Shown here in pieces: positions 1 through 3,359 of a stretch of DNA of 3,359 bases. Source of the DNA: Escherichia coli (GTDB lineage: Bacteria; Pseudomonadota; Gammaproteobacteria; Enterobacterales; Enterobacteriaceae); NCBI RefSeq assembly GCF_003334385.1, contig NZ_QOWN01000094.1, one strand, 5' to 3'. The position numbers were made by a program, and so were the translations under genes. A model generated the notes under the pieces. The model searched no databases. It had not been told where the DNA came from and worked only from the letters and a program-made list of their open reading frames with translations. The stretch's first letter is position 1; every line of letters begins with the position of its first letter.

Positions 1-1980
1 GGGGTAAGCGGTGAGGCTCAGATTGCGTCCATCAGCCAGAGTGTGGCGCGTTTCTCCTCTGCATCCGGCGTGGAGGTGGACAAGGTCGCTGAAGCCTTCG
101 GGAAGCTGACCACAGACCCGACGTCGGGGCTGACGGCGATGGCACGCCAGTTCCATAACGTGACGGCGGAGCAGATTGCGTATGTTGCTCAGTTGCAGCG
201 TTCCGGCGATGAAGCCGGGGCATTGCAGGCGGCGAACGAGGCCGCAACGAAAGGGTTTGATGACCAGACCCGCCGCCTGAAAGAGAACATGGGCACGCTG
301 GAGACCTGGGCAGACAGGACAGCGCGGGCATTCAAATCCATGTGGGATGCGGTGCTGGATATTGGTCGTCCTGATACCGCGCAGGAGATGCTGATTAAGG
401 CAGAGGCTGCGTTTAAGAAAGCAGACGACATCTGGAATCTGCGCAAGGATGATTATTTTGTTAACGATGAAGCGCGGGCGCGTTACTGGGATGATCGTGA
501 AAAGGCCCGTCTTGCGCTTGAAGCCGCCCGAAAGAAGGCTGAGCAGCAGACTCAACAGGACAAAAATGCGCAGCAGCAGAGCGATACCGAAGCGTCACGG
601 CTGAAATATACCGAAGAGGCGCAGAAGGCTTACGAACGGCTGCAGACGCCGCTGGAGAAATATACCGCCCGTCAGGAAGAACTGAACAAGGCACTGAAAG
701 ACGGGAAAATCCTGCAGGCAGATTACAACACGCTGATGGCGGCGGCGAAAAAGGATTATGAAGCGACGCTGAAAAAGCCGAAACAGTCCGGCGTGAAGGT
801 GTCTGCGGGCGATCGTCAGGAAGACAGTGCTCATGCTGCCCTGCTGACGCTTCAGGCTGAACTCCGGACGCTGGAGAAGCATGCCGGAGCAAATGAGAAA
901 ATCAGCCAGCAGCGCCGGGATTTGTGGAAGGCGGAGAGTCAGTTCGCGGTACTGGAGGAGGCGGCACAACGTCGCCAGCTGTCCGCACAGGAGAAATCCC
1001 TGCTGGCGCATAAAGATGAGACGCTGGAGTACAAACGCCAGCTGGCTGCACTTGGCGATAAGATCACGTATCAGGAGCGCCTGAATGCGCTGGCGCAGCA
1101 GGCGGATAAATTCGCACAGCAGCAACGGGCAAAACGGGCCGCCATTGATGCGAAAAGCCGGGGGCTGACTGACCGGCAGGCAGAACGGGAAGCCACAGAA
1201 CAGCGCCTGAAGGAACAGTATGGCGATAATCCGCTGGCGCTGAATAACGTCATGTCAGAGCAGAAAAAGACCTGGGCGGCTGAAGACCAGCTTCGCGGGA
1301 ACTGGATGGCAGGCCTGAAGTCCGGCTGGAGTGAGTGGGAAGAGAGCGCCACGGACAGTATGTCGCAGGTAAAAAGTGCAGCCACGCAGACCTTTGATGG
1401 TATTGCACAGAATATGGCGGCGATGCTGACCGGCAGTGAGCAGAACTGGCGCAGCTTCACCCGTTCCGTGCTGTCCATGATGACAGAAATTCTGCTTAAG
1501 CAGGCAATGGTGGGGATTGTCGGGAGTATCGGCAGCGCCATTGGCGGGGCTGTTGGTGGCGGCGCATCCGCGTCAGGCGGTACAGCCATTCAGGCCGCTG
1601 CGGCGAAATTCCATTTTGCAACCGGAGGGTTTACGGGAACCGGCGGCAAATATGAGCCAGCGGGGATTGTTCACCGTGGTGAATTTGTCTTCACGAAGGA
1701 GGCAACCAGCCGGATTGGCGTGGGGAATCTCTACCGGCTGATGCGCGGCTATGCCACCGGTGGTTATGTCGGTACACCGGGCAGTCTGGCTGACAGCCGG
1801 TCGCAGGCGTCCGGGACGTTTGAGCAGAATAACCATGTGGTGATTAACAACGACGGCACGAACGGGCAGATAGGTCCGGCTGCTCTGAAGGCGGTGTATG
1901 ACATGGCCCGCAAGGGTGCCCGTGATGAAATTCAGACACAGATGCGTGATGGTGGCCTGTTCTCCGGAGGTGGACGATGA
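1..1980 (+). CDS. H: Tail tape measure (length-determining) protein gpH, 5'-partial; C-terminal 659 aa plus stop
   Basis: Frame 1 is open from nt 1 to the TGA at 1978..1980, so the gene enters from upstream of the window; the GTG at 43 used by the ORF track is an internal codon, not the start. The translation (…VARFSSASGVEVDKVAEAFGKLTTDPTSGL… through …MRDGGLFSGGGR) matches my recollection of lambda gpH. It has a long Ala/Gln/Lys/Glu/Arg-rich helical region followed by a Gly-rich C-terminal region, typical of tape measure proteins. 660 codons in the window is consistent with an 853-aa gpH starting 193 codons upstream. Confidence 0.94.
   Translation, partial: GVSGEAQIASISQSVARFSSASGVEVDKVAEAFGKLTTDPTSGLTAMARQFHNVTAEQIAYVAQLQRSGDEAGALQAANEAATKGFDDQTRRLKENMGTLETWADRTARAFKSMWDAVLDIGRPDTAQEMLIKAEAAFKKADDIWNLRKDDYFVNDEARARYWDDREKARLALEAARKKAEQQTQQDKNAQQQSDTEASRLKYTEEAQKAYERLQTPLEKYTARQEELNKALKDGKILQADYNTLMAAAKKDYEATLKKPKQSGVKVSAGDRQEDSAHAALLTLQAELRTLEKHAGANEKISQQRRDLWKAESQFAVLEEAAQRRQLSAQEKSLLAHKDETLEYKRQLAALGDKITYQERLNALAQQADKFAQQQRAKRAAIDAKSRGLTDRQAEREATEQRLKEQYGDNPLALNNVMSEQKKTWAAEDQLRGNWMAGLKSGWSEWEESATDSMSQVKSAATQTFDGIAQNMAAMLTGSEQNWRSFTRSVLSMMTEILLKQAMVGIVGSIGSAIGGAVGGGASASGGTAIQAAAAKFHFATGGFTGTGGKYEPAGIVHRGEFVFTKEATSRIGVGNLYRLMRGYATGGYVGTPGSLADSRSQASGTFEQNNHVVINNDGTNGQIGPAALKAVYDMARKGARDEIQTQMRDGGLFSGGGR
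1966..1973 (+). promoter_or_regulatory. Shine-Dalgarno sequence for M (GGAGGTGG), inside the 3' end of H
   Basis: GGAGG at 1966..1970 is read directly, 6 nt upstream of the M ATG at 1977. The site lies within H coding sequence, as expected for translationally coupled genes. Confidence 0.6.
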
Positions 1981-2306
1981 AGACCTTCCGCTGGAAAGTG
2001 AAACCCGGTATGGATGTGGCTTCGGCCCCTTCTGTAAGAAAGGTGCGCTTTGGTGATGGCTATTCCCAGCGAGCGCCTGCCGGGCTGAATGCCAACCTGA
2101 AAACGTACAGCGTGACGCTTTCTGTCCCCCGTGAGGAGGCCACGGTACTGGAGTCGTTTCTGGAAGAGCACGGGGGCTGGAAATCCTTTCTGTGGACGCC
2201 GCCTTATGAGTGGCGGCAGATAAAGGTGACCTGCGCAAAATGGTCGTCGCGGGTCAGTATGCTGCGTGTTGAGTTCAGCGCAGAGTTTGAACAGGTGGTG
2301 AACTGA
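1977..2306 (+). CDS. M: Minor tail protein gpM (tail tip assembly), 109 aa
   Basis: ATG at 1977 overlaps the H stop (ATGA, 1977..1980). GGAGG at 1966..1970 lies 6 nt upstream. The translation MKTFRWKVKPGMDVASAPSVRKVRFGDGY…EFEQVVN matches lambda gpM in sequence and length, and sits in the expected position between H and L. Confidence 0.93.
   Translation: MKTFRWKVKPGMDVASAPSVRKVRFGDGYSQRAPAGLNANLKTYSVTLSVPREEATVLESFLEEHGGWKSFLWTPPYEWRQIKVTCAKWSSRVSMLRVEFSAEFEQVVN
2293..2298 (+). promoter_or_regulatory. Shine-Dalgarno-like sequence for L (AGGTGG), inside the 3' end of M
   Basis: AGGTGG at 2293..2298 is read directly, 7 nt upstream of the L ATG at 2306. Confidence 0.5.
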
Positions 2307-3004
2307 TGCAGGATATCCGGCAGGAAACACTGAATGAATGCACCCGTGCGGAGCAGTCGGCCAGCGTGGTGCTCTGGGAAATCGACCTGACAGAGGTCGG
2401 TGGAGAACGTTATTTTTTCTGTAATGAGCAGAACGAAAAAGGTGAGCCGGTCACCTGGCAGGGGCGACAGTATCAGCCGTATCCCATTCAGGGGAGCGGT
2501 TTTGAACTGAATGGCAAAGGCACCAGTACGCGCCCCACGCTGACGGTTTCTAACCTGTACGGTATGGTCACCGGGATGGCGGAAGATCTGCAGAGTCTGG
2601 TCGGCGGAACGGTGGTCCGGCGTAAGGTTTACGCCCGTTTTCTGGATGCGGTGAACTTCGTCAACGGAAACAGTGACGCCGATCCGGAGCAGGAGGTGAT
2701 CAGCCGCTGGCGCATCGAGCAGTGCAGCGAACTGAGCGCGGTGAGTGCCTCCTTTGTACTGTCCACGCCGACGGAAACGGATGGCGCTGTTTTTCCGGGA
2801 CGTATCATGCTGGCCAACACCTGCACCTGGACCTATCGCGGTGACGAGTGCGGTTATAGCGGTCCGGCTGTCGCGGATGAATATGACCAGCCAACGTCCG
2901 ATATCACGAAGGATAAATGCAGCAAATGCCTGAGCGGTTGTAAGTTCCGCAATAACGTCGGCAACTTTGGCGGCTTCCTTTCCATTAACAAACTTTCGCA
3001 GTAA
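2306..3004 (+). CDS. L: Minor tail (tail tip) protein gpL, 232 aa, with C-terminal cysteine cluster
   Basis: ATG at 2306 overlaps the M stop by 1 nt (TGATG, 2304..2308). AGGTGG at 2293..2298 lies 7 nt upstream. The translation MQDIRQETLNECTRAEQSASVVLWEIDLTEVGGERYFFCNEQ…FLSINKLSQ matches lambda gpL. Stop is TAA at 3002..3004. Confidence 0.93.
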   Translation: MQDIRQETLNECTRAEQSASVVLWEIDLTEVGGERYFFCNEQNEKGEPVTWQGRQYQPYPIQGSGFELNGKGTSTRPTLTVSNLYGMVTGMAEDLQSLVGGTVVRRKVYARFLDAVNFVNGNSDADPEQEVISRWRIEQCSELSAVSASFVLSTPTETDGAVFPGRIMLANTCTWTYRGDECGYSGPAVADEYDQPTSDITKDKCSKCLSGCKFRNNVGNFGGFLSINKLSQ

Positions 3005-3009
3005 ATCCC

Positions 3010-3359
3010 ATGACACAGACAGAATCAGCGATTCTGGCGCACGCCCGGCGATGTGCGCCAGCGGAGTCGTGCGGCTTTGTGGTAAGCACGCCGGAGGGGG
3101 AAAGATATTTCCCCTGCGTGAATATCTCCGGTGAGCCGGAGGCGTATTTCCGTATGTCGCCGGAAGACTGGCTGCAGGCAGAAATGCAGGGTGAGATTGT
3201 GGCGCTGGTCCACAGCCACCCCGGTGGTCTGCCCTGGCTGAGTGAGGCCGACCGGCGGCTGCAGGTGCAGAGTGATTTGCCGTGGTGGCTGGTCTGCCGG
3301 GGGACGATTCATAAGTTCCGCTGTGTGCCGCATCTCACCGGGCGGCGCTTTGAGCACGG
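3010..3359 (+). CDS. K: Tail tip assembly protein gpK, 3'-partial (first ~116 codons); N-terminal MPN/JAMM-type domain
   Basis: ATG at 3010..3012 lies 5 nt after the L stop, and the frame stays open to the window end. It is absent from the ORF track only because it has no in-window stop. The translation MTQTESAILAHARRCAPAESCGFVVSTPEGERYFPCVNISGEPEAYF…LVHSHPGGLPWLSEADRRLQVQSDLPWWLVCRGTIHKFRCVPHLTGRRFEHG matches lambda gpK and contains an H-x-H-x7-S-x2-D motif. No clear Shine-Dalgarno precedes it, so the exact start is less certain than for M and L. Confidence 0.88.
   Translation, partial: MTQTESAILAHARRCAPAESCGFVVSTPEGERYFPCVNISGEPEAYFRMSPEDWLQAEMQGEIVALVHSHPGGLPWLSEADRRLQVQSDLPWWLVCRGTIHKFRCVPHLTGRRFEH

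Follow-up and report, generated by a model that had tools for sequence, protein, structure and literature searches.

Tail genes H, M, L and K of a close lambda relative in Escherichia coli

In phage lambda the tail genes H, M, L and K are transcribed within the long late transcript. The tape measure protein gpH sets the length of the tail, undergoes cleavage to gpH* and subsequently provides the DNA channel through the cell envelope; gpM, the distal tail protein ring, and gpL build the tail tip together with gpJ and gpI; and gpK acts in assembly only, is absent from the virion and has a predicted role in the processing of the ubiquitin-like gpI (PMC10721106, PMC12617516, PMC11101478, PMC1779556). 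The C-terminal helix of gpH (residues 818-849) forms a coiled coil docked on gpI, and cleavage to gpH* is assigned to a Gly-rich region at about residues 690-730 (PMC10721106, PMC12617516). Cys173, Cys182, Cys205 and Cys212 of gpL are the ligands of a 4Fe-4S cluster (PMC10721106), and gpK has a two-domain architecture in which a JAB/MPN domain is combined with an NlpC/P60 domain (PMC1779556). The structure of the lambda tail tip has been solved (PDB 8IYK, 8IYL, 8K35, 8XCG and 9E7M), whereas gpK, which is not in the virion, is without a solved lambda structure.

The stretch of E. coli DNA analysed here, 3,359 nucleotides of contig NZ_QOWN01000094.1 (assembly GCF_003334385.1) and hereafter called the window, is ordinary tail-building DNA of a close lambda relative, and its H-M-L-K gene content is already known. 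The window comprises the 3' three-quarters of H, all of M, all of L and the 5' half of K, lying head to tail on one strand (Table 1), and the stops and starts at the three junctions (ATGA, TGATG and TAA-5 nt-ATG) suggest coupled translation between neighbours. We conclude that the window almost certainly belongs to a wild phage or prophage of E. coli that resembles lambda, as part of its late (morphogenetic) operon, and that nothing else functional is detectable in the window.

Table 1. Features of the window and their coordinates.
Feature	Position	Strand	Remarks
H, 3' part: residues 195-853 of gpH (tape measure protein) and stop codon	1-1980	+	Frame 1 open from base 1, stop at 1978-1980; 659 of 853 aa
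M, complete: gpM (distal tail protein), 109 aa	1977-2306	+	ATGA, 4-nt overlap with H stop
L, complete: gpL (tail tip hub protein), 232 aa, 4Fe-4S domain	2306-3004	+	TGATG, 1-nt overlap with M stop
L-K spacer ATCCC (TAA-atccc-ATG)	3005-3009	+	Only non-coding stretch; read from sequence
K, 5' part: residues 1-116 of gpK (tail assembly protein), JAB/MPN metallopeptidase domain	3010-3359	+	ATG at 3010, 116 codons open to window end
Internal GGAGG and in-frame ATG (Met49)	3138-3156 (GGAGG 3138-3142, ATG 3154-3156)	+	Where the 1982 lambda annotation starts K

The assignment of each gene rests on its protein matches. The gpH portion scored 444.7 bits against TIGR01541, for which the cut-off is 104.75 (1.9e-133), matched PF09718 (1.5e-21) and PF06791 (4.3e-12) as a lambda-type tape measure protein, includes the Tape_meas_lam_C domain and aligned with residues 195-853 of PDB 8iyk_H at E = 0. 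Its residues 818-853, which contain the C-terminal helix, carry no substitution relative to lambda, and a Gly/Ala-rich stretch is found at 697-740. The product of the gene directly downstream matched lambda gpM over its full length (PDB 8iyk_M, residues 1-109, 8.2e-72) as well as PHROG 14 (8.7e-42), while no NCBIfam model matched it in the profile search. gpL is a minor tail protein L by TIGR01600 (331.3 bits, cut-off 70.75, 2.2e-99), aligned with PDB 8iyk_L over its full length (1.2e-158) and retains all four cluster cysteines. The gpH, gpM and gpL of the window thus match the chains deposited in the lambda tail tip structures throughout, and the functional residues named in the papers describing these structures are kept.

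For gpK the profile match was to Prok-JAB (PF14464, residues 3-104, 1.1e-14), and the JAMM metal-binding motif (HxH...S..D) is present as HSHPGGLPWLSEAD, beginning at residue 68, which identifies the domain as JAB/MPN; the nearest sequence match in the PDB is an uncharacterised JAB-like protein, 2KKS (E = 4e-6). The NlpC/P60 (C40) domain lies beyond the window and is seen in relatives, where the 247-aa protein carries the PGAP name 'C40 family peptidase'. The peptidase activity of gpK is a prediction.

Comparison at the nucleotide level places the window next to lambda. Megablast against 24 lambda or lambda-hybrid records gave 99.2% identity over 100% of the window (6054 bits, E = 0), and alignment with the re-sequenced lambda OM418625 (lambda 11123-14481) is ungapped with 27 substitutions. 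As 18 of these are synonymous and only eight codons change an amino acid, the pattern looks like that of protein-coding DNA. The changes are S249T, Y332F, S458G, V549I and M790L in H, V17A in M, and M95L and Y124D in L, with none in residues 1-116 of K, so that protein identity to lambda is about 99.2% in H, 99.1% in both M and L, and 100% in this part of K. The window and lambda agree in gene order, strand, gene lengths and junctions, and the H-M-L-K order on one strand, the tight junctions and the collinearity are those of the lambda late operon. The original prediction, made from the letters alone, had recognised the four products as the C-terminal 659 aa of lambda gpH, gpM, gpL and the gpK N-terminus, in canonical order on one strand with overlapping or near-abutting boundaries. 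The near-identical family matches of all four, the 4-nt and 1-nt overlaps and the 5-nt gap agree with it, the last being indeed the largest gap and the L-K spacer. Its claim of perfect collinearity holds without qualification against re-sequenced lambda and with a 1-nt indel against J02459/NC_001416, and the comparison with lambda that it proposed as a check gave the identity and the eight amino-acid substitutions stated above.

With such identity and perfect collinearity, the window might be phage lambda itself, whether a laboratory strain, the arm of a cloning vector or a sequencing spike-in. Lambda DNA is a common contaminant, and the entry 'Campylobacter phage CJLB-4', for example, aligns with the window just as lambda records do (99.2%, full length, 6054 bits). 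We nevertheless consider this highly improbable, as the same ~27 substitutions separate the window from every lambda or lambda-hybrid record, at most of the 27 sites the allele of the window is shared by 9-12 of 13 wild relatives with lambda as the outlier, and E. coli prophages are nearer, at 99.5% identity. Laboratory lambda is accordingly ruled out as the identity of the window by 27 differences that are mostly majority prophage alleles. The earlier proposal of either the phage itself or a lambdoid prophage therefore stands for a wild lambda-like phage or prophage, while its laboratory version does not.

The best match was a lambda-like prophage of E. coli PE164 (NZ_CP114128.1, 3582221-3585579; 99.5%, 17 substitutions). 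Sixteen of the differences are in H and one, synonymous, is in codon 2 of M (base 1982), whereas from base 1983 to the end of the window there are none, so that both encode the same M, L and K(1-116) proteins. The PGAP annotation of PE164 shows H, M, L and a K of 247 aa within a complete lambda-type late operon, with the terminase genes at one end and tail fibre assembly at the other. In the closest relatives the block is flanked by the rest of the operon (V, G and T upstream, I and J downstream), and by analogy with them the window probably sits in the same operon context. The window is also distinct from its relatives, as two of its alleles, A at 1063 (H V549I) and G at 1629, occur in 0 of 13 relatives compared. 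The 81-nt stretch around 1063 had no 100% match among 5,426 complete E. coli genomes, the exact 40-mer 1051-1090, which carries this private allele, gave 0 matches in IMG/VR, GTDB representative genomes and JGI metagenomes, and no copy identical to the window was found in the phage, E. coli complete-genome, IMG/VR, GTDB-representative and JGI metagenome collections.

Variation among the relatives follows the four genes. Across 14 relatives, variable columns at the first, second and third codon positions numbered 221/204/419 in H, 23/15/55 in M, 52/37/140 in L and 18/10/52 in K, and this concentration at third positions in every gene was counted in favour of the protein-coding reading. Synonymous variation was present in every 30-codon window and was nowhere strongly suppressed, although the 13 relatives behind this test are mosaics of one another, and a short or lineage-specific element would therefore escape it. 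The codon analyses excluded one locus (CP025907), whose many 1-nt indels resemble errors of assembly.

Scans for other elements within the window were negative. Rfam searched on both strands at E <= 1 gave 0 matches, ARAGORN found 0 tRNA genes, and Tandem Repeats Finder at a minimum score of 30 found 0 arrays; the direct and inverted repeats found were all short (14-28 nt) and imperfect, as is usual for chance pairs. One promoter-like site was found against 1.1 expected from shuffled sequence. Terminator-like sites numbered seven against 3.4 +/- 2.0 expected; all lie inside coding sequence, five of them on the non-coding strand, and we do not treat them as functional. Composition showed no island, with GC flat at 0.53-0.61 and a steady positive GC skew. 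The expectation that no independent hidden element would be found is thus borne out by the RNA, repeat, promoter, terminator, alternative-ORF, synonymous-variation and folding checks, all of which were negative.

Long antisense ORFs, e.g., 2204-3016(-) of 270 aa or 3025-3357(-) of 110 aa, could in principle be real overlapping genes, and in addition to its length the latter is open in 13 of 13 relatives. Yet the longest of them (2204-3016, 1573-2238, 595-1125 and 3025-3357) run codon-for-codon against H, L or K, a register in which stops arise only opposite the sense codons TTA, CTA and TCA, and such codons account for 4 of 1116 in the window, three of the four (595, 1573 and 3025) being the exact ends of antisense ORFs. 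At that rate a run of 110 codons would be free of stops with a probability of ~0.67. ORFs other than 3025-3357(-) gain 1-5 stops in relatives, variation tracks the codon positions of the sense strand, and synonymous variation in L peaks over 2732-2881. We consider an overlapping antisense gene exceedingly improbable, and reject the alternative-frame and antisense ORFs as genes, interrupted as they are in diverged relatives or explained by codon usage.

One departure of the window from the lambda reference calls for care and concerns K. Its counterpart in J02459/NC_001416 is 11124-14481, and relative only to this 1982 reference the window has one extra base, the G at 3144. As J02459/NC_001416 is without this G, its annotated K is a 199-aa protein starting at window position 3154, with an apparent gap of 149 nt between L and K, whereas the window, the re-sequenced lambdas and the prophages have an intact 247-aa K beginning at 3010; in the PE164 prophage PGAP calls a 744-nt gene from the equivalent ATG. 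Met49 is Ile in three diverged relatives, and K codons 1-48 have 5, 5 and 21 variable columns by codon position, mainly third. The domain homology, this codon-position variation and the loss of Met49 in relatives support a K start at 3010, where the original prediction had correctly put the gpK N-terminus, and the 149-nt L-K gap is not real. Our literature search found nothing on this discrepancy, which we describe from our own sequence comparison.

As no Shine-Dalgarno motif is seen in the sequence before ATG 3010, and as a region of ~75 nt around the L stop and K start (~2975-3050) is nearly invariant among the 14 relatives, we considered whether the L/K junction or the beginning of K encodes a second product, a 199-aa K isoform from Met49, or a conserved RNA element governing K translation. 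GGAGG lies 11 nt upstream of the internal in-frame ATG, several curated lambda records annotate the pair as the ribosome-binding site and start of K, and synonymous variation is lowest in the near-invariant region, at 0.056-0.073 against gene means of 0.115-0.166. The internal start, however, is not conserved, given the replacement of Met49 by Ile in the three most diverged relatives, and since the JAB alignment begins at residue 3 a 199-aa product would be without the N-terminal third of the domain. An RNA structure at the junction is rejected, as folding of 2940-3080 was no more stable than that of shuffled sequence (z = +0.97). In addition, the rise in third-position identity extends over the K segment as a whole and is not confined to the junction, which fits mosaic ancestry. 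A second product or cis element here is therefore unlikely. There is a small chance that the invariant ~2975-3050 stretch and/or the internal GGAGG-ATG is a real expression device, keeping the level of gpK low or providing a shorter K isoform in lambda proper; if true, it would be a small addition to the biology of lambda tail assembly and no new kind of system.

The biological weight of the locus is small, as its genes are among the best characterised of any phage and structures have been solved for those products that enter the virion (gpH, gpM and gpL). Its practical value is that of a clean negative, and the window can leave the search for cryptic systems. For those who use the lambda reference, the comparison shows that a base missing from J02459/NC_001416 truncates K to 199 aa and creates a false gap of 149 nt between L and K.

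The original prediction had read the window as the lambda-type tail module of H (tape measure gene), M (distal tail protein), L (tail tip hub protein) and K (tail assembly protein), and the four genes indeed lie where it placed them.

Coding layout of the tail module in window coordinates
Feature	Position	Strand	Remarks
3' part of H	1-1980	+	frame 1 open from base 1; stop 1978-1980
M	1977-2306	+	
L	2306-3004	+	
5' part of K	ATG at 3010	+	frame open through window end, 116 codons

As lambda H spans 10542-13103, frame 1 of the window corresponds to gpH residues 195-853, the 659-aa C-terminal part that had been proposed. 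The genes join at ATGA (H/M), TGATG (M/L) and TAA-ATCCC-ATG (L/K), where ATCCC is the largest gap, 5 nt as predicted. We infer from these tight junctions that neighbouring genes would be translationally coupled.

GpH matches TIGR01541 (444.7 bits; cut-off 104.75), PF09718 and PF06791 as well as residues 195-853 of chain H in PDB 8IYK, and its residues 818-853, which include the gpI-docking coiled coil, are unchanged from lambda. This protein sets tail length, is cleaved within its Gly-rich region to give gpH* and gpHC, and supplies at least a major part of the DNA channel across the cell envelope (PMC12617516). All 109 residues of gpM, a hexamer connecting tail tube and tip, match 8IYK chain M (8e-72), and gpM also matches PHROG 14. 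GpL hits TIGR01600 at 331 bits as well as chain L of 8IYK, and retains Cys173, 182, 205 and 212, the ligands of its 4Fe-4S cluster (PMC10721106). In the K segment, residues 3-104 match the Prok-JAB domain (PF14464, 1.1e-14) and the JAMM motif is present as HSHPGGLPWLSEAD, in agreement with the published JAB + NlpC/P60 architecture of K (PMC1779556). GpK is needed for assembly, is not detected in virions and is the predicted processor of the ubiquitin-like gpI (PMC10721106, PMC12617516, PMC1779556).

A search of all 3359 bases of the window against 50,697 phage records gave 232 matching records, 24 of them lambda or lambda-hybrid records (the hybrids including HK629, HK630, DE3, imm21 and imm434) with 100% coverage, 99.2% identity, 6054 bits and E = 0. 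The expected collinearity holds, as the alignment to re-sequenced lambda OM418625 (lambda 11123-14481) contains no gaps and 27 substitutions. Eighteen are synonymous and the remaining nine alter eight codons, giving S249T, Y332F, S458G, V549I and M790L in H, V17A in M, and M95L and Y124D in L of the window, with no amino-acid change in K 1-116. The record MW057783.1, 'Campylobacter phage CJLB-4' (48,361 bp, host Campylobacter jejuni), carries lambda gene names and matches the window with the same values as lambda (99.2%, 6054 bits); contamination with lambda DNA or mislabelling of the record is the probable cause.

The source had been given as either the phage itself or a lambdoid prophage. 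At most sites of difference the window carries the allele of 9-12 of the 13 wild relatives compared, and laboratory lambda is therefore the outlier; with 27 substitutions, mostly at such sites, it was rejected as the source. A wild lambda-like phage or prophage fits. Of 5,426 complete E. coli genomes, 4,384 match the window (median two copies per genome), with identities up to 99.5%. The closest prophage, that of E. coli strain PE164 (NZ_CP114128.1), has 17 differences, none of them beyond base 1982, so that the two sequences agree fully from 1983 on; its matching block lies within a complete lambda-type late operon that begins with the terminase genes and extends to tail fibre assembly. None of the 13 compared relatives shares the window's 1063 A or 1629 G, an 81-mer around 1063 has no 100% match in the 5,426 genomes, and a 40-mer around it does not occur in IMG/VR, GTDB representative genomes or JGI metagenomes. 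Judged by sequence, the source is therefore a prophage module of a very common kind, in an allele that is slightly new.

Literal comparison with the lambda reference would mislead at one spot only, the start of K. At window 3144 the 1982 reference (NC_001416/J02459) reads GGAGGC-TATTTC, whereas the window and all re-sequenced lambdas examined read GGAGGCGTATTTC; the G missing between reference positions 14266 and 14267 is also present in prophages. In the reference, the frame from the upstream K ATG shifts and then terminates, and K is therefore annotated there as 199 aa from 14276 (window 3154). Some newer lambda records, such as OM418625, have the G in their sequence yet retain this short annotation, in which GGAGG (3138-3142) serves as the ribosome-binding site of K. 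PGAP and other annotators give K as 744 nt starting 5 nt downstream of L. Three observations support this long form, which starts at 3010 and, as predicted, directly follows L: the JAB profile alignment begins at residue 3; across 14 relatives, codons 1-48 have 5, 5 and 21 variable columns at their first, second and third positions, the third-position weighting expected of coding sequence; and the three relatives that diverge most have Ile in place of Met49, the old start.

Synonymous variation is lowest at the L/K junction, where ~2975-3050 (the end of L, the 5-nt spacer and the beginning of K) is almost invariant across 14 relatives, even in those with ~45-60% third-position identity in adjoining blocks. 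No Shine-Dalgarno motif precedes the K ATG, and folding of the junction RNA shows no excess stability over shuffled sequence (z = +0.97). The invariance may reflect translational coupling, mosaic ancestry or a recombination junction. Third-position identity is elevated across the entire K segment, as mosaic ancestry or the usual constraints on translation initiation would produce. Within the tape measure gene, ~380-600 (gpH residues ~320-395) is a hypervariable patch, with non-synonymous differences in 0.35-0.44 of sequence pairs. Third-position identity drops there to 0.36-0.38 even in the related locus L010, whose identity is ~90% or more over most of the remaining window. L010 and two other loci (L011, L013) carry an 18-nt in-frame insertion after 486, and L010 a 12-nt in-frame deletion near 1546. 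The patch looks like a product of mosaic recombination in which the tape measure has changed slightly in length.

The view that nothing is hidden here also held. Scans of the window for Rfam families (E <= 1), tRNA or tmRNA genes and tandem repeats found none; promoter-like sites equal the shuffled expectation, terminator-like sites mildly exceed it, every one within coding sequence, the repeats present are all short, imperfect ones, and base composition varies little. In an alignment of the window with 13 relatives (71-99.5% identity), variable columns of each of the four genes are enriched at third codon positions of the sense strand, and synonymous differences occur in all 30-codon windows (0.056-0.25 of sequence pairs). 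One locus was excluded from the codon analyses, CP025907.1 (Escherichia phage 204576, unannotated), whose ~20 scattered single-base indels relative to the window, in H, M, L and K, would disrupt all the reading frames and resemble errors left uncorrected in a long-read assembly. Among 15 alternative-frame ORFs of at least 51 aa, 13 are interrupted by stop codons in one or more relatives. The two open in all relatives were rejected as genes: 2745-2933(+) sits where L synonymous variation peaks, and 3025-3357(-) is antisense codon-for-codon to K, its openness being explained by codon usage. In that register stops are possible only opposite sense TTA, CTA or TCA, and since only 4 of 1116 codons are of this kind, all TCA (595, 1255, 1573, 3025), antisense ORFs of 110-270 aa arise, and 595, 1573 and 3025 are exactly the ends of such ORFs; the chance of 110 stop-free antisense codons is ~0.67. 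The sequence thus gives no hint of any cryptic system.

Both parts of the original prediction fared well, the observation being confirmed and its interpretation supported: the window holds a slightly new allele of a phage structural module that is well known.
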